Source: an uncultured Aliarcobacter sp.
GTDB taxonomy: Bacteria > Campylobacterota > Campylobacteria > Campylobacterales > Arcobacteraceae
Direction of reading: 5' to 3'
NCBI GenBank assembly: GCA_963664305.2
Contig: CAXXLV010000002.1
Span: 1,216,001 to 1,280,000 of the forward strand
Length of the DNA: 64,000 nt
Shown here in pieces: positions 8,889 through 43,538 of the stretch. The position numbers and the translations under genes were made by a program. Numbering within the stretch: position 1 is the stretch's first letter; every line of letters begins with the position of its first letter. The notes beneath the pieces are model-generated. The model saw only the letters and a list, made by a program, of their open reading frames with translations, was not told the DNA's origin and ran no database searches.

Positions 8889-9949
8889 TATTTTCTTTTT
8901 TCTGCTTCAATTTCAACTTCTTGGATGAATCTATTTATAAGTGCATCTCCACTTAATTTTTCAATAATTTCACCCTTTTTCATTACAAGTCCACTACCTT
9001 TTCCAAAGGCAATTGCAACATCTGCACTTTTTGCTTCTCCGATTGCATTAACAACACAACCCATAACTGAAACATCAAGTGGAGTTTTTATGTGAGCAGT
9101 TCTTTTTTCTATTTCAGCAACTGCACTTACTAAATCTGCTTCAATTCTTCCACAAGTAGGACAAGAAACGATATTTAGTCCCTCTTTTGCAATTCCAACA
9201 TCTTTTAAAATTGCTTTTCCAACTTTAATCTCTTCTTCAAGTTCACCAGTCATAGAAACTCTTAAAGTATCACCAATTCCATCAAGTAATAAAGAGCCTA
9301 ATGCAATTGATGATTTAATTGTTGAGTGAAATTGTGTTCCAGCTTCTGTAACACCTAAATGAAATGGATAATTATTTTTAGGTCTTAATAATCTATAAGC
9401 TTCTACAGTTCTTTGAACATCACTAGCTTTTAAAGAAACCTTTAAATTCGTAAATCCTAAATCTTCAAGATATTTGATATTGTACTCAGCTGAGGCTACC
9501 ATTCCTTCTGGAGTTTGACCATATTTATCTTCAAATTGTTTTTCTAAAGAACCTGAATTTACTCCAATTCTAATTGGAATATTTCTTTGTTCGCAAGCTT
9601 TAACAATCTCTTTAACCCTACTTTTTTCTCCAATATTTCCTGGGTTAATTCTAATACAATCCACAACCTCTGCAGCAATTAAAGCAAGCTTATATTTAAA
9701 ATGAATATCTGCAACAAGTGGTAAATCTATTTGAGATTTTATATCTTTTAGTGCATTAGCTGCATCCATGTCAGGAACAGCAACTCTTACTATATCAGCA
9801 CCAGCAAAATGTAATCTTGTTATTTGTTCTACTGTTGCTTTTACATCTGATGTTTTTGAAAAAGTCATTGATTGTACTGGAATTGGTGCATCACCACCAA
9901 TAGGAACATTTCCTACGAATATTTGTTTTGTTGGGTATCTTTTTATCAT
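8888..9949 (-). CDS. ispG: HMBPP synthase
   Basis: VQSMT, RINPGN, SCPTCGR, MGCVVN. Confidence 0.96.
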
Positions 9950-36708: not shown

Positions 36709-36726
36709 TTAATTTACTGTTAATTA
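36709..36726 (+). repeat. attL core TTAATTTACTGTTAATTA
   Basis: Identical to 41931-41948. Confidence 0.82.
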
Positions 36727-36939
36727 GAAAGAACTTAAAAACTTTATTTCTTTATATATTGATTATTTTTTGTGTTGAATAAGTATGTTAATTTATCAAA
36801 TTAACAAAAATTATACAAATTTAATTACTAATAACAAATTAATATTTTTTCCAATATCTAAAAAAAATTATTTTTCTAATAATTAAAATTCCATTAAAGT
36901 TATTAAGTTATAATAAAAATTATTTTTTAAAGGAATTAA

Positions 36940-37245
36940 ATGAAAAAACTTTTATTAATTAGTTTATTAACATCTCTTGCATTTTCAGAGGTTTATTATA
37001 AAAATAAAGATACAAAATATAATGATCGAGAATTAGCAGATGACCAAATCAGAATAAATGGTTATATTACAAATGTAAATAAATGGCGTGATTATACTAT
37101 CATAGAAATAAAACAAAAAGATGGAAAATATGTAAAAGCTAAAGTTGGTAATAATGATGGATTTAGTGAAAATGACATAGTTTTAGGAAGTTGTGTTAAT
37201 TACAAATACGGTCAATATGAAAGATGTTCATTATACAGAAGATAG
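36940..37245 (+). CDS. Small secreted hypothetical protein (element cargo)
   Basis: Signal peptide MKKLLLISLLTSLAFS; AAGGA RBS; gtTATAAT at 36907-14. Confidence 0.75.
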   Translation: MKKLLLISLLTSLAFSEVYYKNKDTKYNDRELADDQIRINGYITNVNKWRDYTIIEIKQKDGKYVKAKVGNNDGFSENDIVLGSCVNYKYGQYERCSLYRR

Positions 37246-37257
37246 TTATAAAACTAT
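37220..37257 (+). repeat. Cassette-flanking direct repeat, copy 1
   Basis: AAAGATGTTCATTAT-AC-AGAAGATAGTTATAAAACTAT. Confidence 0.85.
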
Positions 37258-37288
37258 AAGTAAATATAAATTCTAAAAAGGAAGAATT

Positions 37289-37684
37289 ATGAAAATAGAT
37301 ACAGATTATCTAAAAGAAATATTAGATGTTTTTATTGAAAGTGATACTAATTACATTAAAACTGATATATACAAAACTATGATTCATGAAAATGAGGAAA
37401 AATTTTTATTTCATTGGGATCTATTATTAGATAAGTATTTAATTGTAAATACAAAAGGCGAAAAACCAAAATTAGCTACATATGCAATGAATGGTGAATG
37501 TTCAATTATTCTTGGATCAAGTGTTAGATTGCATGATAATGGGCATGAATTTTATAATATGCTAGAAGATGATACAACAATAAATAAAATCCAATCAAAT
37601 GTTAAAAATTTAAGTATGGATTTTCTTTTAGAAGCATCAAAACAGTATATAAATTATAAACTTGGAAATATTTTTAATTCATAA
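37289..37684 (+). CDS. DUF2513-like winged-helix hypothetical protein
   Basis: MKID.D.LKEIL N-terminus, H..LL.D..LI, RLHDNGHEF pattern recalled from DUF2513. Confidence 0.6.
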   Translation: MKIDTDYLKEILDVFIESDTNYIKTDIYKTMIHENEEKFLFHWDLLLDKYLIVNTKGEKPKLATYAMNGECSIILGSSVRLHDNGHEFYNMLEDDTTINKIQSNVKNLSMDFLLEASKQYINYKLGNIFNS

Positions 37685-37725
37685 ATAATACAAAATAAGA
37701 AATATAAATAATACATTTATTTCTA

Positions 37726-37764
37726 AAAGATGTTCATTATTATAGAAGATAGTTATAAAACTAT
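37726..37764 (+). repeat. Cassette-flanking direct repeat, copy 2
   Basis: AAAGATGTTCATTAT-TAT-AGAAGATAGTTATAAAACTAT. Confidence 0.85.
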
Positions 37765-37767
37765 TTT

Positions 37768-38139
37768 CTATTTAAAAATCATAGTGTTATAAATTTTATT
37801 CTCTTCTTTTTGTTCTTTAATCGCTGAATATACAAAATATGTCATAAATATTGAAGCCATAATTAATGCTCCTAATACTAATAATCCTATTGCATTTTTG
37901 TGTTCAATTTTTGTATTTTTAATATCTAAAATTGGTTCGTTTGCATAAACTCTTTCATCAGTAGGAATATCTCTTTTATTATTTAGATTTAATTCTATTT
38001 TATTTTTTCTATTTGAATTAGCACTAATAAAATCTAATGCTTCTTTTCTTTTTTCTTCTTTTAATAATTGTTTTTCTGCCCTTATAACTCTTTCTTTATC
38101 ATTCCAGTAATTTTTCAACTCATCATTATCTATCTTCAT
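37768..38139 (-). CDS. Hypothetical protein with C-terminal TM helix (start moved to ATG 38139)
   Basis: AAGGA RBS before 38139; AIGLLVLGALIMASIFMTYFVYS TM segment. Confidence 0.7.
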   Translation of the reverse strand: MKIDNDELKNYWNDKERVIRAEKQLLKEEKRKEALDFISANSNRKNKIELNLNNKRDIPTDERVYANEPILDIKNTKIEHKNAIGLLVLGALIMASIFMTYFVYSAIKEQKEENKIYNTMIFK

Positions 38140-38270
38140 TTTTTTCCTTAAACAAACAATAATATAGATATTCCTATTGTTATAAATAATAAAAAAAGCC
38201 AATCAATATTATCAAAACTTAATCTAAACATTTTAAGCCTTTGTTGTGGTATTAAGAAATTCTAACAATT

Positions 38271-38290
38271 AAATGACTCAGAAATGACTC
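38271..38290. repeat. Tandem AAATGACTC repeat, candidate integrase arm-type sites
   Basis: AAATGACTC-AG-AAATGACTC just downstream of the int stop. Confidence 0.5.
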
Positions 38291-38308
38291 TTTTTATAAC
38301 TTTTTTTA

Positions 38309-39328
38309 TTATTCATCTAAAAATGTAGTTTTTCTTATTGTCGTTTCTTTTTTTATATATTTAGAATATTTTTGTAAAGTTACATCTAAAGACCTATGTC
38401 CTAACATTTGACTAACCCATAATGGGTTTTCTGCATTTGAAAGCATATTACTTGCAAAGGTGTGTCTTGTTTGATATATTGAACGATAATCTAAATCTAA
38501 ATGATTTAAAATATCTTTCCAAATATTTTGTAAAGCTGAACTAGACTTAAAAGGTTTAAATTTACTATTCAAAAACACATATTCAAAAGAACCAGTAATT
38601 TTATATTGTTCTAAAAGATAACTTTCACAAATTGGCAGCATATCAATAGTTCTAACACTTGATTTAGTTTTAGGTGTATCTTCAAAACCGTTTGTAAATT
38701 GATTATCTATTTTTATGGTAAAGTTTTCAAAATCAATATTACACCATTTTAAACCAAATATTTCTCCAGTTCTTGCACCAGTATAAAAAAGAGTTGCAAT
38801 TAAATTTTTTATTAAGTCAGGAGCCGTATCAATAATTTTTTTAGCTTCATCAAAAGTAAAAGGATTCATAACATAATTTGTTTTTAGTTTTGGTTTTGTA
38901 ATTTGTAATGGAGTAAAATTGATATAACCTTTGATTATTGCTTTTTCAAATGCAAACTTCAATATAACATGACATATTCTTAAAGTAGATTTATCAGAAA
39001 AAGAATTATAAAAATCATAAATTATTGATGGAGTAATTACACTAACTACTTTATCACTAAAGAAAGGTTTTATTTGAGTATTAAATAAGTTATTATATGC
39101 ACGATAAGAATTTCTTTTTAAAGTTGATTCTTTCTCATCTAAAACCATTTGACAAAGTTCTACAACAGTAGGAACACTCTTTTTAATATTGAATTTATTA
39201 AAAAATTCTTCATCTTCATAATAAGACTTGAATTTCTTTATATTCTCTTTTGAATATTTTAATTTTGTTGTTTTTCTTATTCCATTAATTGATACATATA
39301 GAATGCCATTTCTATCGTAAAAAGTCAT
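38309..39328 (-). CDS. int: Tyrosine recombinase/integrase (start ATG 39328)
   Basis: TGARTGE, PKT, YQTRH, LGH, KY catalytic set; GGAGG RBS. Confidence 0.95.
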   Translation of the reverse strand: MTFYDRNGILYVSINGIRKTTKLKYSKENIKKFKSYYEDEEFFNKFNIKKSVPTVVELCQMVLDEKESTLKRNSYRAYNNLFNTQIKPFFSDKVVSVITPSIIYDFYNSFSDKSTLRICHVILKFAFEKAIIKGYINFTPLQITKPKLKTNYVMNPFTFDEAKKIIDTAPDLIKNLIATLFYTGARTGEIFGLKWCNIDFENFTIKIDNQFTNGFEDTPKTKSSVRTIDMLPICESYLLEQYKITGSFEYVFLNSKFKPFKSSSALQNIWKDILNHLDLDYRSIYQTRHTFASNMLSNAENPLWVSQMLGHRSLDVTLQKYSKYIKKETTIRKTTFLDE

Positions 39329-39426
39329 TTTTCCTCCAAATTTACGCATTAAGTTCTTATCTAGTAGCAAAAGAAAACAAAAAATATTTTAAATTTGTTT
39401 GTATCCTCACGCCCTATCGGTTGTGT

Positions 39427-39498
39427 ACTCATTTTTAAAATATCGGTCTAATATCAATAACGATAAAAAAAGCTATCCGAATATTTTAAAAATCGAGT
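39427..39498. other. Long imperfect hairpin between xis-like gene and int
   Basis: ACTCATTTTTAAAATATCGG pairs with CCGAATATTTTAAAAATCGAGT: 20 bp with two single-base bulges. Confidence 0.7.
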
Positions 39499-39539
39499 CT
39501 TAATAATTAATATACATTTGTTATAAAATACTACAACTA

Positions 39540-39824
39540 TTATGAAGCTAGTTTTTTTATTGCTTCACTTATAAAAATTATTTTTATTTTTCCTTTTTCT
39601 ATCGTTTTATGATAATGAACACCTATTTTTAATCTTCCATCTTTAAACATATTATTTAATGTTGATTCAGATATATCTAGATATTCTCTAACATTTTTTC
39701 TTTTTGTCAAATCTGGAACTTTTATAAGATTACTTTCCAATAATTTTATTTTATTTTCTAAGAAAGTAATTTTTTCTAAAACTTCAGGAATTAAATCTAG
39801 ATTTTTAAAAGCTTCATAACTCAT
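39540..39824 (-). CDS. Excisionase/AlpA-like HTH protein
   Basis: LTKRKNVREYLDISESTLNNM..DGRL..GVHY; directly upstream of int. Confidence 0.75.
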   Translation of the reverse strand: MSYEAFKNLDLIPEVLEKITFLENKIKLLESNLIKVPDLTKRKNVREYLDISESTLNNMFKDGRLKIGVHYHKTIEKGKIKIIFISEAIKKLAS

Positions 39825-39850
39825 TTTTTATCCTTTTTATAATTAATATA

Positions 39851-40897
39851 TCAATAATCCAAAAGCCCATTTCTCAAAGAGTAGTTTTCACCTCTTTGGT
39901 ATATCAGCTCATCACCAAAAAATATTTCCATTATCTTGTTTCTATTAGTTTGTAATACAAATATAGATAATGATTTCTTTTTAACTAAAGTAGTTAATTC
40001 TTTTAAACTGAATTTTTCATGTAATAATCTATAAAGACTTAAAGGTGCTAAAGTTTTACTACAATTAAATCTAACGATTCTATGTTTACAATACCAAGCA
40101 TTTAAATATTTCTCTTTAGTTGATAAATTCTCTTTTTTAGATAAAGGTAATGTTTTATTTATATACTTCATTACATATGATGCAGCATTTTTAATATTTA
40201 TCTGTATGTCATTTGCTTTATTATCAAATAATCTTTTAAATGCGTTAACCACTCTATCTACACTTGATTTTGGGATAAATAGTAATATATGAGTATGTGG
40301 CGTTCCATTTTTATGTGGCTCATTTACTCTAAAATATATTCTTTCATCTTTAGTTAATTCTTTCAAACTTCTATCGTGTCTAAGTTTGGAAAACATTTTT
40401 GTTAAATGCTTTACTGCTTCTTTAGGTTGAATAAAATTATATTTAGAATTAGGCACTAAAATATTCATCTTTTTATCCATTTTCATTTTATGAAACTCAC
40501 TTGGAAGTGTTAAAGTCATAAATATTGGAAATAGATTTTTTTCTTTTGCTTCATTTGTTAATGTATTAATTCTGTTTTGAATTAATGCATGATATCTAGT
40601 TGGATTATGATTAGCTGATATAACTAAATCTTTTAAAGGAATTTGAGTTCCTGAAATTTTGTCATAGAGGTAATTATATTTTAAAAAAGAATTTTGTCTT
40701 TTTAACTTTTCTAAAACTTCTTTATAATCATTTTGACTTAAGCCATAAATTTTAGTTTTATTGCTTATGTCCACAACTTTTTTATAAATAGTCAAGGAAG
40801 ATAAAGAAGAAAAACTTTGTTCGCACGGCTCACAAATTATTTTCTTCTTATCTTCAATCATTACGCTATTGTTAATAATTTCTTTTGTATAATGCAT
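39851..40897 (-). CDS. rep: Rolling-circle replication initiator (HUH endonuclease, phage gpA-like)
   Basis: Motif 1 FMTLTLP, motif 2 EPHKNGTPHTH, motif 3 YVMKY; AAGGA RBS. Confidence 0.92.
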   Translation of the reverse strand: MHYTKEIINNSVMIEDKKKIICEPCEQSFSSLSSLTIYKKVVDISNKTKIYGLSQNDYKEVLEKLKRQNSFLKYNYLYDKISGTQIPLKDLVISANHNPTRYHALIQNRINTLTNEAKEKNLFPIFMTLTLPSEFHKMKMDKKMNILVPNSKYNFIQPKEAVKHLTKMFSKLRHDRSLKELTKDERIYFRVNEPHKNGTPHTHILLFIPKSSVDRVVNAFKRLFDNKANDIQINIKNAASYVMKYINKTLPLSKKENLSTKEKYLNAWYCKHRIVRFNCSKTLAPLSLYRLLHEKFSLKELTTLVKKKSLSIFVLQTNRNKIMEIFFGDELIYQRGENYSLRNGLLDY

Positions 40898-40899
40898 TT

Positions 40900-40975
40900 A
40901 TATATCCTTATCCGAGGTTATTTAGTTCAAAGGAAGAAAAACCGCCAAGTATTCTTTCCTTTGGACAACTTAATT
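40900..40975 (+). ncRNA. Candidate antisense RNA to the rep leader (ends approximate)
   Basis: TATAAT at 40888-93; spans complement of the rep RBS and the 40925-40966 hairpin with CGCCAA loop. Confidence 0.45.
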
Positions 40976-41240
40976 AAACTGCTGTAAATGAAATTGAAGA
41001 CTTAGAATAAAGTTTGCAATTTATTTCCATATCTTTACCAATATTAGATTGATATTTTTGTACCTCTTTTTCATCAATAGTTATATCAACTAATTCTTTT
41101 TTAGAAGTACCATTATTTAGTTTTTGATTTGCAAGTAATTGAACTGCAAATTTTTTACTCGTACTTTCTCCTGTTTCTTTATTTATATAGACTGGCTTTT
41201 CGTAACAATCTATTATTTTGCCTTGTATTGTTATGTTCAT
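40974..41240 (-). CDS. Probable single-stranded DNA-binding protein (inovirus gV/RstB-like)
   Basis: 88 aa, beta-rich, NKETGE beta-hairpin; adjacent to an RCR Rep. Confidence 0.65.
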   Translation of the reverse strand: MNITIQGKIIDCYEKPVYINKETGESTSKKFAVQLLANQKLNNGTSKKELVDITIDEKEVQKYQSNIGKDMEINCKLYSKSSISFTAV

Positions 41241-41698
41241 TTTTCTTCCTTATTTCTATTTTTTTTAAATTCAAATTCTTTATTTGTAATAGGTGAAACT
41301 ATGAATGATTCTTCTGATAATCCAAATTCAACTGATAATCTTTCATTTTCAACAACATATTTGTCATATTCTTCAACAGTCCGAAAATCTGTTCTACTAC
41401 AACCTGAAACAAAAATGCTTGGTGCAATTAAAGATATAATATCTGGCAAATATCTGATTTCTTCTTCTCCAAATTCATTATTAACTTTTACCCCATAGCC
41501 TTCACCAACAACAACTAACTCTTTTTGTAATTGAACTAAAGAGTTATCAATCATTTCTCTAATTAATGTAGAAACAGTTATTCCATAATGTTCAGCAAGA
41601 ATTTCAAGAACATCAACTTTTCCTTTTGGCATACGAAGATTTATCTTTTTTTCTTCACCTCTGCTATCTAATTTATTTAACTTTTTGTCTAAAGACAT
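41237..41698 (-). CDS. Ribbon-helix-helix (CopG/Arc-like) regulator with C-terminal extension (start ATG 41698)
   Basis: KKINLRMP..VDVLEILAEHYGITVSTLIREMI; AAGGAG RBS. Confidence 0.8.
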   Translation of the reverse strand: MSLDKKLNKLDSRGEEKKINLRMPKGKVDVLEILAEHYGITVSTLIREMIDNSLVQLQKELVVVGEGYGVKVNNEFGEEEIRYLPDIISLIAPSIFVSGCSRTDFRTVEEYDKYVVENERLSVEFGLSEESFIVSPITNKEFEFKKNRNKEEK

Positions 41699-41727
41699 AT
41701 TTACTCCTTTTTGCAAATTATTTGTAT

Positions 41728-41760
41728 TACAATTGTATCACCAAAATTTACAATTGTCAA
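41728..41760 (-). promoter_or_regulatory. Sigma70 promoter overlapped by two ACAATTGT palindromes
   Basis: TTGACA(41760-55)-17 nt-TACAAT(41737-32) with TGn extension; palindromes at 41728-37 and 41750-57. Confidence 0.8.
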
Positions 41761-41930
41761 TAATTTTATTAATGAATAAATATTTTTGAAATAAATAAGT
41801 GTGCTTGATTTGTGTATTTTTTTAAATATAAAATAAATATATTTTCAAATTAAAATATATTCTAGAATTCAAAAGTTACATATTTATGATGATTTGATAT
41901 ATATTTGATTTATAAATAAAATATGTAATA

Positions 41931-41948
41931 TTAATTTACTGTTAATTA
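41931..41948 (+). repeat. attR core TTAATTTACTGTTAATTA
   Basis: Identical to 36709-36726; abuts the glpD stop codon. Confidence 0.82.
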
Positions 41949-43538
41949 TCAAAAATAGTTTTTAATAAACTCTTTTGCTTCATTTTTCTCTATTTCTTTT
42001 TTTTCAATATCCCATTTTAAAATTTTTGCCATTTCTTCACAAACAATATCAACAAGTTCTAAAGAAGATTTTTTATCTATAAAACAAAGCCCTATTCTTC
42101 TTGCTAAATAGTCTATTGGCTTTTGAATGAACTCTTCTTTTATACAATACTCTATCTCTTTTTTTAAATAAGGAAATCTTTCATCTAGTAAATCAAAATC
42201 TTTATTTTCATCTGCAAGTGATAAAACCTTTATTGCATTGTCACCATAAAGTGAAATCAAAGATTTTTTTGTTTTTTTTGAAATAGGATAAAATGAAGTT
42301 AATTTTTCTAAGTTTTTTTTCTTTTGCCTATTTCCTACAAGTTTATATTTTTTTGTTTTACACAGTTCTTTCTTTTCAATTTTATTTTGTTTTATCAAAT
42401 AATCCATGATGTCATTTGCCATTTTTCTATAGGTAGTCCATTTGCCACCACAAATTGAAACTAAACCACTTTTTGAACTAAAAATTGAATGTTCTCTGTT
42501 TATTTGTTCTGTTTTTAATTTATTACTTTTTACAAGAGGTCTAATTCCACTCCAAGAAGATAAAATATCCTGTTTTGTTAAAGTTTTATCAAAATAATTA
42601 TTTACCTCTTTTAATAAATACTCTATTTCTTCATCTTTTACTTTTGAATTTTCCTCATAAAAAGTTTTATTATCTGTTGTTCCTATTAAACAATGTTCTA
42701 AAAATGGTAATACAAAAACTACTCTATTATCACTTGTATTTGGTATCAAAATTGCTTCATCAGAAAATAAAAAATCCTTTGAAACAACAATGTGAATTCC
42801 ACTACTTAAAGTCAAGACTTCTTTTGTTTCATTATCTAAAAATCTCATATTATCAACATTTGCACCTGTTGCATTTATTACAACTTTTGATTTGATTTCA
42901 AACTCTTTATTTTTTACTTTATCAAAATACTTCACGCCTGAAATCTTATTATTTTCATCATATGAAAAATTTTTAACTTCACAATAGTTTTTAACAATTG
43001 CACCATTTTCAAAAGCTGATTGCAAAAGTGAAATTATCATTCTAAAATCTAAAAAAGTTCCATCATAAAACGAAATACATGCTTTTAAATTTTTTTTTCT
43101 CAAATTTGGGAAATAGTAACTACTAATAACTTTATTCAAAAAAGTATTATTACCTAAACTATTTTTATATGAAATCAATTTATAAATAAACAAACCAATA
43201 TAGTTTTTAATTAGATTAAAATAAGAGTAACTTGGGATATTTATTTTTAATTTTTTTGATATATTTGAACTATTTTTTAGAAAAATTGCTCTTTCTTTTA
43301 AAGCTTCTTTTACTAAATTGTATTGAGATTTATCAAACTCTTTGATTGCTTTTTCAAGATACCTAACTCCACCATGAACTAATTTTGAACTTTTAGAACT
43401 AGCTCCACTTCCAAAATCATTTTTTTCTAAAAGTAAAACTTTATAACCTCTAAGTGTTGCATCAAGACATATTCCACTACCAACAGCTCCGCCACCAATC
43501 ACAACAATATCATAGTTTTCATCTCTTGAATTTATCAT
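41949..43538 (-). CDS. glpD: FAD-dependent glycerol-3-phosphate dehydrogenase/oxidase
   Basis: GGGAVG, SSKSSKLVHGGVRYL, GTTD, GIRPL, GGKWTTYR. Confidence 0.88.
   Translation of the reverse strand: MINSRDENYDIVVIGGGAVGSGICLDATLRGYKVLLLEKNDFGSGASSKSSKLVHGGVRYLEKAIKEFDKSQYNLVKEALKERAIFLKNSSNISKKLKINIPSYSYFNLIKNYIGLFIYKLISYKNSLGNNTFLNKVISSYYFPNLRKKNLKACISFYDGTFLDFRMIISLLQSAFENGAIVKNYCEVKNFSYDENNKISGVKYFDKVKNKEFEIKSKVVINATGANVDNMRFLDNETKEVLTLSSGIHIVVSKDFLFSDEAILIPNTSDNRVVFVLPFLEHCLIGTTDNKTFYEENSKVKDEEIEYLLKEVNNYFDKTLTKQDILSSWSGIRPLVKSNKLKTEQINREHSIFSSKSGLVSICGGKWTTYRKMANDIMDYLIKQNKIEKKELCKTKKYKLVGNRQKKKNLEKLTSFYPISKKTKKSLISLYGDNAIKVLSLADENKDFDLLDERFPYLKKEIEYCIKEEFIQKPIDYLARRIGLCFIDKKSSLELVDIVCEEMAKILKWDIEKKEIEKNEAKEFIKNYF

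Follow-up and report, generated by a model that had tools for sequence, protein, structure and literature searches.

We analysed a window of 64,000 nucleotides (nt) from the genome of an uncultured Aliarcobacter sp. (G000:C2:1216001-1280000; 2.78 Mb in two contigs, 99.96% complete), which carries a small integrative element bounded by two exact copies of the 18-mer TTAATTTACTGTTAATTA, spaced 5222 bp apart (Table 1). The surrounding DNA is AT-rich, with a G+C content of ~20-30% across the profiled 30-48 kb part of the window. The element is flanked by a TonB-dependent receptor gene and a glpD-like gene (41949-43538, minus strand), and no tRNA gene was found in the window. Allowing up to two mismatches, the 18-mer occurred only at these two places in the window, and none of 100 shuffled sequences contained two or more copies; allowing one mismatch, the two copies were the only ones in the whole genome.

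Eight open reading frames (ORFs) lie within the insert, five core genes and one cargo ORF on the minus strand and two cargo ORFs on the plus strand, and their products were assigned to families by Pfam and PHROG profile searches. An earlier note, made from the sequence of the window, had listed the same parts: a ribbon-helix-helix (RHH) protein, a protein resembling single-stranded DNA-binding proteins (SSB), an HUH replication initiator (Rep) with a YxxKY motif, an Xis-like protein, a tyrosine integrase and three cargo ORFs between exact 18-bp repeats, giving a predicted circle of 5222 bp. These features, including the shared orientation of the core genes, were all recovered here. So was the reported lack of a Zot/pI ATPase, coat protein, relaxase or type IV secretion system (T4SS) gene, as none of the eight proteins matched a Zot, secretin, relaxase or T4SS family in Pfam, and inspection of the intergenic gaps revealed no coat-protein-like or adsorption-protein ORF of at least 22 amino acids (aa). 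The element thus lacks the Zot/pI ATPase and the small coat and adsorption proteins by which an inovirus is recognized. It had no match in Rfam at E up to 1, and PADLOC detected no defence family among its proteins.

The replication genes resemble those of a single-stranded DNA (ssDNA) replicon. Rep scored above the curated cut-offs of two families (Phage_GPA, 84.6 bits vs 31.4; REP_ORF2-G2P, 43.3 bits vs 27.8), and the PHROG family that it matches, phrog_91, is labelled “nicking at origin of replication”. Residues H201-T-H203 and Y241-V-M-K-Y245 are invariant across eight Reps of its clade aligned at full length and would correspond to the metal motif and the catalytic tyrosines, an arrangement of tyrosines that we take to be that of phiX174 gpA and P2 gpA-type initiators. 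The 88-aa gene lies directly upstream of Rep in all relatives examined. Its product has 92 homologues, 80 of them also 88 aa long, and all are unnamed or “hypothetical” apart from one evident mislabel. An AlphaFold2 model built with a 32-sequence alignment (predicted local distance difference test score 83.9) has the order strand-strand-strand-helix-strand (b1-b3/helix/b4). In Foldseek the top rows for this model were SsbB, SsbA and PriB (E 0.014, probability 1.0), and an independent structural aligner ranked the yeast SSB Rim1 first (Z 6.9), among SSB/PriB chains and other oligonucleotide-binding (OB) folds. The OB fold itself is assigned with confidence, and by this modelled fold and its fixed position upstream of Rep the protein is probably SSB-like. 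A 126-aa protein of the prophage described below was considered as its relative and discarded (hhalign probability 0.3), the loose MAFFT alignment of the two being no evidence.

The RHH protein is probably the repressor of the replication operon, judging from its match to phrog_876 (“transcriptional repressor”) and from its counterparts in relatives, which match NikA-like RHH proteins at 1.6e-8. Six ACAATTGT palindromes occur in the window vs 2.8 expected, and two of them, 21 bp apart, overlap the putative promoter of the RHH gene, whose TTGACA...TACAAT elements are kept in a relative in genome G002. This promoter may therefore be autoregulated, with the palindromes as operators. Both integrase profiles were above cut-off (catalytic PF00589, 69.9 bits; N-terminal SAM-like PF14659, 41.1 bits), which places the protein among the tyrosine recombinases; its start is likely at 39328, because the prophage integrase aligns with it only from M15 onwards.

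As for the cargo, a 30%-identical homologue (E 7e-10) of the 101-aa protein is encoded directly downstream of the Rep gene of an inovirus in G002 (L125 11942-12271), so this gene may circulate as an accessory gene among elements of the filamentous-phage type. The DUF2513 gene lies between two copies of a 24-nt direct repeat (37234-37257 and 37741-37764; 23/24 identical, 507 bp apart), as if it had entered as a cassette or were enclosed by paired terminators. The third cargo protein is probably ~123 aa long, starting from an internal ATG.

Table 1 Features of the element in the window, and size and cargo of related elements at other loci
Feature	Position or locus	Strand	Basis
attL, left 18-bp direct repeat, attachment-site core	36709..36726		Exact repeat; single copy in empty sites
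Cargo ORF, 101 aa, N-terminal signal-peptide-like segment by eye	36940..37245	+	No Pfam/PADLOC match
Cargo ORF, 131 aa	37289..37684	+	DUF2513 E 1.4e-4, below cut-off; phrog_585 E 1.3e-14
Cargo ORF, 144 aa, one C-terminal hydrophobic segment by eye	37768..38202	-	No significant family
Tyrosine integrase (Int), 353 aa	38309..39370	-	Phage_integrase PF00589 3e-19; Phage_int_SAM_3 2e-10; phrog_1 8e-60
Imperfect 70-nt hairpin (CTCGATTTTTAAAA ... TTTTAAAAATGAG, coding strand)	39428..39497	-	In the 169-bp Int-Xis spacer
Xis-like helix-turn-helix protein, 94 aa	39540..39824	-	HTH_17 E 0.0057, below cut-off; weak PHROG excisionase matches
Rep, two-tyrosine HUH rolling-circle initiator, 348 aa	39851..40897	-	Phage_GPA 8.5e-24; REP_ORF2-G2P 4.8e-11; phrog_91 1e-29
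OB-fold protein, 88 aa, probable ssDNA-binding	40974..41240	-	No Pfam match; predicted fold
RHH-domain protein, 159 aa	41237..41716	-	Pfam RHH/CopG E 0.012-0.054 (residues 21-58), below cut-offs; phrog_876 3e-5
Promoter-like TTGACA-17 nt-TACAAT and two ACAATTGT palindromes (41729-41736, 41750-41757)	41729..41760	-	Upstream of RHH gene
attR, right 18-bp repeat, abuts stop codon of glpD-like gene	41931..41948		Exact repeat
Repeat-bounded element, 3612 bp	L022 (G002)		Exact flanking repeats
Repeat-bounded element, 3658 bp	L096		Exact flanking repeats
Repeat-bounded element, 3664 bp	L091		Exact flanking repeats
Repeat-bounded element, 3702 bp	L097		Exact flanking repeats
Repeat-bounded elements, 4.3-4.8 kb	Five loci		Exact flanking repeats
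Repeat-bounded elements, 5.9-6.6 kb	Five loci		Exact flanking repeats
Repeat-bounded element, 7.6 kb	One locus		Exact flanking repeats
Repeat-bounded element, 9.1 kb	One locus		Exact flanking repeats
NB-ARC/TPR/PRTase-CE protein cargo	L023		
Fic + AAA_21 ATPase cargo	L025		
C5 methylase + GmrSD cargo	L026		
PIN protein cargo	L027		
Reverse transcriptase cargo	L028, L031		
MNT/HepT pair cargo	L030, L031		

The element is a site-specific insertion that is polymorphic both among close relatives and within a metagenome. In a DNA search of this genome and 60 relatives, the two flanks adjoin each other in many genomes of the genus. Two of these (G027 and G019) have flanks 94-95% identical to those of the window, with both flank matches overlapping by exactly 18 bp, and their empty sites read as the left flank of the window, one identical 18-mer and the right flank. 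Such a single-copy empty site is what the earlier note had expected in relatives, and together with the flanking direct repeats it marks a site-specific integrative element. In addition, metagenome run X2 contains a contig in which 36708 is joined directly to 41931, skipping the 5222 bp (18 shared letters; shorter side 77 nt), and a second contig that bridges attR, so occupied and empty sites exist side by side in nature. No attB joint was seen in the isolate-like contigs of runs X23/X24, a result of little weight since contigs drop rare variants, and short-sided joints (21-25 nt) in these contigs were rejected as junctions since they resemble k-mer noise.

We sought relatives of the element through its Rep. 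A Rep match at E up to 1e-10 was found in 51 of the 184 genomes of the bacterial family, and the matches fall into two classes. Short Reps are 50-87% identical to the query in ORFs of ~340-365 aa and occur in 12 genomes (two copies are broken), with a fragment in a thirteenth; long Reps are at most 42% identical, in ORFs mostly of ~370-510 aa. Using an alignment of eight short Reps, we also retrieved metagenome loci (107 found, of which 80 were kept; Rep 52-86% identical) and IMG/VR contigs, and thus had 91 other short-Rep loci, 11 genomic and 80 metagenomic. Had these homologues always carried morphogenesis genes, the earlier note would have had the element as a decayed prophage; none of the 91 has Zot or secretin by tblastn. 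Profile searches seeded with the Zot (10) and secretin (10) sequences of inoviruses recovered only those seeds, finding neither protein in the element or the 91 loci (best other E 0.004, in L102), and Pfam detected neither among 106 ORFs from ten short-Rep loci. This absence is not an effect of short contigs, since 22 of the loci extend for 5 kb or more in both directions from Rep. All nine IMG/VR contigs with a distant Rep (31-37% identical) carry Zot and secretin just upstream of it.

The earlier note had proposed a search for conserved gene order. The order (RHH)-88 aa-Rep-(Xis or AlpA)-Int recurs across the 91 loci, with a sub-type whose integrase is P4-type and encoded upstream of the RHH gene, and the 3.6-kb forms consist of the five core genes only, as seen directly in G002. 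In a quick maximum-likelihood tree, a branch with 99% SH-aLRT support has all 73 short Reps on the same side; as Reps were classed as short or long by their identity to the query, this split is partly built in, whereas the matching distribution of Zot and secretin is independent of it. A sample of 400 genomes of the phylum from outside the bacterial family contained the clade in 5, which belong to four more families of the same order. As judged by these comparisons, the short-Rep replication module is a separate, old lineage without virion genes and not a one-off decayed prophage.

Several of the related loci deserve mention. The nearest genomic relative, in G002 (L022 4389-8019), has a Rep 83% identical to that of the window, comprises core genes only within exact 19-bp repeats, and occupies the orthologous site behind the TonB-receptor gene in the opposite orientation, with an integrase just 45% identical. 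Among the genomic copies, one Rep (L032, G130:C2) has been interrupted by two IS21-type insertions in tandem (rve + IstB pairs), has another insertion sequence flanking it and is clearly dead. The cargo of relatives is often defence-like by Pfam (loci L023-L031; Table 1). Repeats flanking six loci (L068, L074, L080, L085, L095 and L096) resemble tRNA 3' ends, one of them ending in the complement of CCA, and much of the short-Rep family may thus target tRNA genes, unlike the element in the window. A terminal overlap indicative of circularity was found at none of the 80 metagenome loci, and only a viral contig, L043, has one (32 nt). An Int fragment upstream of SSB-Rep on contig L052 was considered as a sign of a circle and proves nothing.

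The same genome carries an inovirus prophage of 9.4 kb, ~315 kb from the element (G000:C2:1566626-1576032; L020 4627-14033) and bounded by a 23-nt direct repeat (21/23 identical). Its genes are ordered as a 92-aa ORF (reverse), a 126-aa ORF, a hairpin, four small membrane-type ORFs (38, 40, 47 and 63 aa), a 486-aa Gly/Ser-rich protein, a 137-aa ORF, Zot (1e-16), secretin (4e-27), a 67-aa ORF, Rep (437 aa), Xis and Int. Compared with the element, its Int is 64% identical and its Xis, a 66-aa gene preceding int, 73%, while its Rep is only 34% (range 34-38%) identical. The integrase of the element is thus closer to that of the prophage than to the integrase of its closest genomic Rep relative in G002 (45%), and the two kinds of element have therefore exchanged their integration module. 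As for the co-occurring inoviruses that the earlier note had suggested looking for, a true Zot (E<1e-7, ORF of 320-410 aa) was found in 4 of the 12 short-Rep genomes (G000, G002, G189 and G130) vs 30 of 184 overall. Pfam Zot matches at E ~1e-4 in ~800-aa ORFs of many genomes were discarded as a host protein, not an inovirus. In G189, the short-Rep element (L025 ~9010-9176) and an inovirus contig (L126 5316-5482) share 167 nt (74% identical), which cover AlpA in the element and lie downstream of Rep in the phage, a hint that the exchange of excision regulators is common.

A second shared feature is a hairpin. Over 113 nt, the spacer between Int and Xis in the element matches non-coding prophage DNA situated between the 126-aa gene and the coat-type ORFs (~75% identity, E 3e-10). 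Both sequences fold on the coding strand into hairpins with the same 14-pair outer stem and differing interiors (element, dG -13.9, z -2.1; prophage, dG -18.3, z -3.6), and both have the same orientation with respect to Rep. This genome has two copies of the stem pattern, and the 183 other genomes of the family have none. In the viral-contig collection it was found once, right after the 126-aa gene of an 11.6-kb inovirus contig related to the prophage (Zot 28% and 126-aa protein 72% identical). As the hairpin follows the 126-aa gene in both the prophage and this contig, it is native to the inovirus lineage, the copy in the element having diverged. Across the three sequences, the 14 outer pairs are invariant and 2 of 25 pairs are compensatory. 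The hairpin is a candidate cis signal of the single-stranded form, either a packaging signal or a complementary-strand origin.

Our combined findings suggest that the element and the inovirus lineage resident in the same genome have exchanged Xis, the integrase and the hairpin. The element has inovirus-type replication genes of its own and no morphogenesis genes, and a complete-looking inovirus is available in the same genome. We therefore favour, with about even confidence, a filamentous-phage satellite with an integrase of its own, or natural “phagemid island”, for which the resident 9.4-kb prophage is the candidate helper. On this reading, and held with the same confidence, the element is an integrated, self-replicating and non-self-transmissible ssDNA replicon. 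While it resides between the TonB-receptor gene and glpD, the RHH protein would repress its own promoter. Xis and Int would recombine the two copies of the 18-bp core and so release the 5222-bp circle; the empty sites show that the element has moved in the past. As expected from its family, the HUH Rep would then nick the circle and drive rolling-circle replication, and the 88-aa OB-fold protein would coat the displaced strand. A co-resident or incoming inovirus could supply coat proteins, the Zot-type ATPase and secretin, and its machinery would extrude the strand of the element, recognized via the hairpin copied from the phage lineage. In a new cell, the strand would be made double-stranded and inserted by Int at the 18-bp site.

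Several observations weigh against such a satellite. The SSB role of the 88-aa protein depends on a fold match that is middling (Z 6.9). Co-residence with an inovirus is not the rule, with a true Zot in 4 of 12 short-Rep genomes, a count drawn from genomes related to one another. The element and the inovirus in G002 share no DNA, and in G189 the shared stretch is confined to the AlpA region. The excised circle junction (attP) was not seen in the X23/X24 contigs, which contain the integrated form only and in which rare variants are dropped. For the hairpin, covariation support is thin (three sequences, two compensatory pairs), and the structure is absent from the other short-Rep loci fetched and is therefore a property of the element in the window and not of the family; it could also have been carried along when recombination introduced Xis and Int. 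Finally, no short-Rep element was found in the viral-contig collection, where a search with Rep alone returned nothing and one with the Rep alignment returned only inoviruses with distant Reps; this is weak evidence, since the collection selects for viral hallmark genes.

The alternative that survives best, although we consider it unlikely, is an integrative rolling-circle plasmid without a dedicated vehicle, which would excise, replicate and re-integrate, and would spread only vertically, by transformation or by means that it neither encodes nor signals itself. The element has excision, replication and integration functions and nothing else, core-only members of 3.6 kb exist, 8 of the 12 family-member genomes show no inovirus, and the element and resident inovirus of G002 have nothing in common. 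Yet members occur in at least five families of the order and at 80 metagenome loci, in varied att sites, a distribution that points to efficient horizontal transfer, and both the SSB-like gene beside Rep and the inovirus-derived hairpin are hard to explain for a purely intracellular plasmid. Between the phage satellite and the integrative plasmid, which the earlier note had left side by side, we lean to the satellite, with about an equal chance of being right or wrong, and regard the plasmid as clearly less probable.

A satellite of tailed phages in the style of PICMI or P4, in which Int, AlpA/Xis and a replication initiator would yield concatemers packaged in helper capsids, is improbable. 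Several members of the family do have a P4-type integrase (Arm-DNA-bind_3), AlpA (E ~1e-16) and defence-like cargo, and PICMI (int, alpA and primase) is described, in the part of its report available to us, as replicating in a rolling-circle-like manner and packaging concatemers (PMC10803314). The replication module here, however, is a Rep with a small OB-fold protein of the ssDNA-phage kind, with no primase family on the element by Pfam; terS, capsid and redirecting genes were found neither on the element nor, by Pfam, in its relatives; and the borrowed parts of the element in the window derive from an inovirus.

Slightly less probable still is an integrative mobilizable element, with Rep as relaxase, the RHH protein as relaxosome accessory and the pore provided by a conjugative element. 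HUH initiators act as relaxases in some integrative mobilizable elements, and RHH proteins of relatives match the NikA-like and MobC_2 families (E 1.6e-8 to 9e-5). This similarity is generic to RHH proteins, however, the SSB gene would be unexpected, and Pfam revealed no MOB relaxase family or coupling protein on the element. Conjugation also looks unavailable in this 99.96%-complete genome, because neither VirB4 (PF03135) nor the coupling protein (PF02534) had a match anywhere in it.

A decayed and now inert inovirus prophage that has lost its virion genes is very improbable: Int, Xis and the hairpin are indeed common to the complete inovirus in the same genome and the three cargo ORFs occupy a possible former position of structural genes, but the core ORFs are all intact with their catalytic motifs present, both att repeats are identical, the insertion is polymorphic in close relatives and in a metagenome, and the clade of 73 Reps, none linked to Zot or secretin, is set off from inovirus Reps by a long, well-supported branch.

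Extending the satellite reading from one element to the whole clade is more tentative. We think it possible, at somewhat less than an even chance, that short-Rep elements are a large unrecognized family of integrase-bearing filamentous-phage satellites in Campylobacterales, minimal (from 3.6 kb) phagemid islands made up of RHH, SSB, Rep, Xis and Int, which would adapt to local helpers by capturing their packaging hairpin and excision module and would carry defence genes from cell to cell without killing. To our knowledge, known filamentous-phage satellites are few, namely RS1 and TLC, which use host Xer recombinases, and the free plasmid pDolos. Inovirus genome surveys use the Zot-type ATPase as a marker and satellite finders target tailed-phage satellites, and if this practice holds, both would miss such elements. 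Were the family indeed to hijack filamentous phages, such parasitism would be much commoner and more modular than thought. Since relatives carry defence-like cargo, it would also offer a non-lytic route for the movement of defence genes, in a group that includes food- and water-borne Aliarcobacter. The presence of the element and a candidate helper in one genome makes the satellite idea directly testable.

Database naming of the family is generic. Rep has matches in 369 protein clusters at E up to 1e-20, the named ones being called “replication endonuclease” (Aliarcobacter butzleri, A. cibarius, Halarcobacter, Arcobacteraceae), and its best matches in annotated phage and plasmid collections, at most 29% identical, are P2-like “replication endonuclease” genes and 14-kb Vibrio prophage records. 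In the open full-text literature, to which the search was confined, we found work on RS1/TLC, pDolos, PICMI, marine virion-encapsidated elements and Vibrio inoviruses (surveys) but no description of an integrase-bearing, Zot-less Rep-SSB family, and the available part of a Vibrio survey mentions only “degraded CTX-I elements” (PMC12715192). Together with its presence in 12 of 184 genomes of the bacterial family and 5 of 400 others, this fits the suggestion in the earlier note of an undescribed family in Campylobacterota.

Among known systems, the element resembles PICMI and P4 in being a small integrated island with int, alpA/xis and one replication gene, and its relatives resemble them in carrying defence cargo. 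The accessible part of the PICMI report describes int, alpA and a primase (DUF3987/DUF5906) among about six genes integrated beside fis (PMC10803314). The element has instead an HUH nickase and SSB, falls outside PICMI for want of a primase family, is not at a fis-linked site, and has a filamentous phage as the only helper candidate found. With no MOB relaxase, coupling protein or T4SS, it also falls outside integrative mobilizable and conjugative elements, although Rep might conceivably act as a relaxase.

The pSAM2-type actinomycete integrative and conjugative elements (AICEs) are likewise integrative replicons with Int, Xis and a rolling-circle Rep, and they carry an FtsK-like transfer gene. 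Weak RepSA Pfam matches add to the likeness, in the Rep of the prophage and in that of a third Rep-bearing element of this genome. The element in the window has no FtsK/SpoIIIE-like transfer gene, whereas the third element has the order Rep-FtsK/SpoIIIE-Xis-Int. The latter (G000:C1 ~854850-859755; L021 2850-7755) comprises Rep (392 aa, Phage_GPA 1e-12), an 87-aa ORF, an FtsK/SpoIIIE ATPase (429 aa), a 144-aa ORF, an HTH_17 protein and an integrase (387 aa), and adjoins an 821-aa TIR-domain protein; its layout recalls pSAM2-type elements of actinomycetes and is unexpected in this phylum.

With integrase-carrying inovirus prophages, the element shares a Phage_GPA / REP_ORF2-G2P Rep, an Xis-Int module, flanking direct repeats and a hairpin, and differs from them in having no Zot-type ATPase, secretin, adsorption protein or small coat ORFs. 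Its Rep (348 aa vs 437 aa in the resident prophage) belongs to a separate clade.

RS1 and TLC are likewise small, integrated and equipped with a repressor and an inovirus-type initiator but no morphogenesis genes, a likeness judged for the window element from its genes. Both integrate at dif via the host XerCD and have no recombinase of their own. In contrast, the element encodes a tyrosine integrase and Xis, which also separates it from integrative mobile elements exploiting Xer (IMEXs; no own recombinase, dif via XerCD), and it uses an 18-bp site between two ordinary genes, while its relatives appear to use tRNA-like sites. Furthermore, RS1 is approximately a copy of the replication module of its helper, whereas the Rep of the element is just 34% identical to that of the resident phage and it is the integration module that is shared. 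As far as the available part of the account goes, RS1 (~3 kb) and TLC (~5.4 kb) of Vibrio cholerae are integrated elements with a repressor and an inovirus-type initiator and without morphogenesis genes, RS1 being packaged by CTX, KSF-1 or VGJ and TLC by an fs2-like phage (PMC3545932).

A gene set very similar to that of the element, compared by description only, is that of the 2.9-kb plasmid pDolos, which encodes a 359-aa Rep together with a repressor, an antitoxin-like protein and an SSB and which the part of the report available to us describes as preferentially packaged by the Shewanella inovirus Dolos (10.1101/2023.11.28.569023). It was not among the Rep matches in annotated phage and plasmid collections, its own record lying outside the collections searched. 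Unlike the element, pDolos is not integrated and has no integrase, and in that part of the report its authors stress the contrast with other satellites; they also argue that, to turn into a satellite, a rolling-circle plasmid requires no more than a short packaging signal (10.1101/2023.11.28.569023). The kind of element described here, a filamentous-phage satellite or integrative rolling-circle replicon, is thus already known; what is new is its own Int/Xis module, the modular exchange with a helper lineage and the family-wide spread in Campylobacterales.

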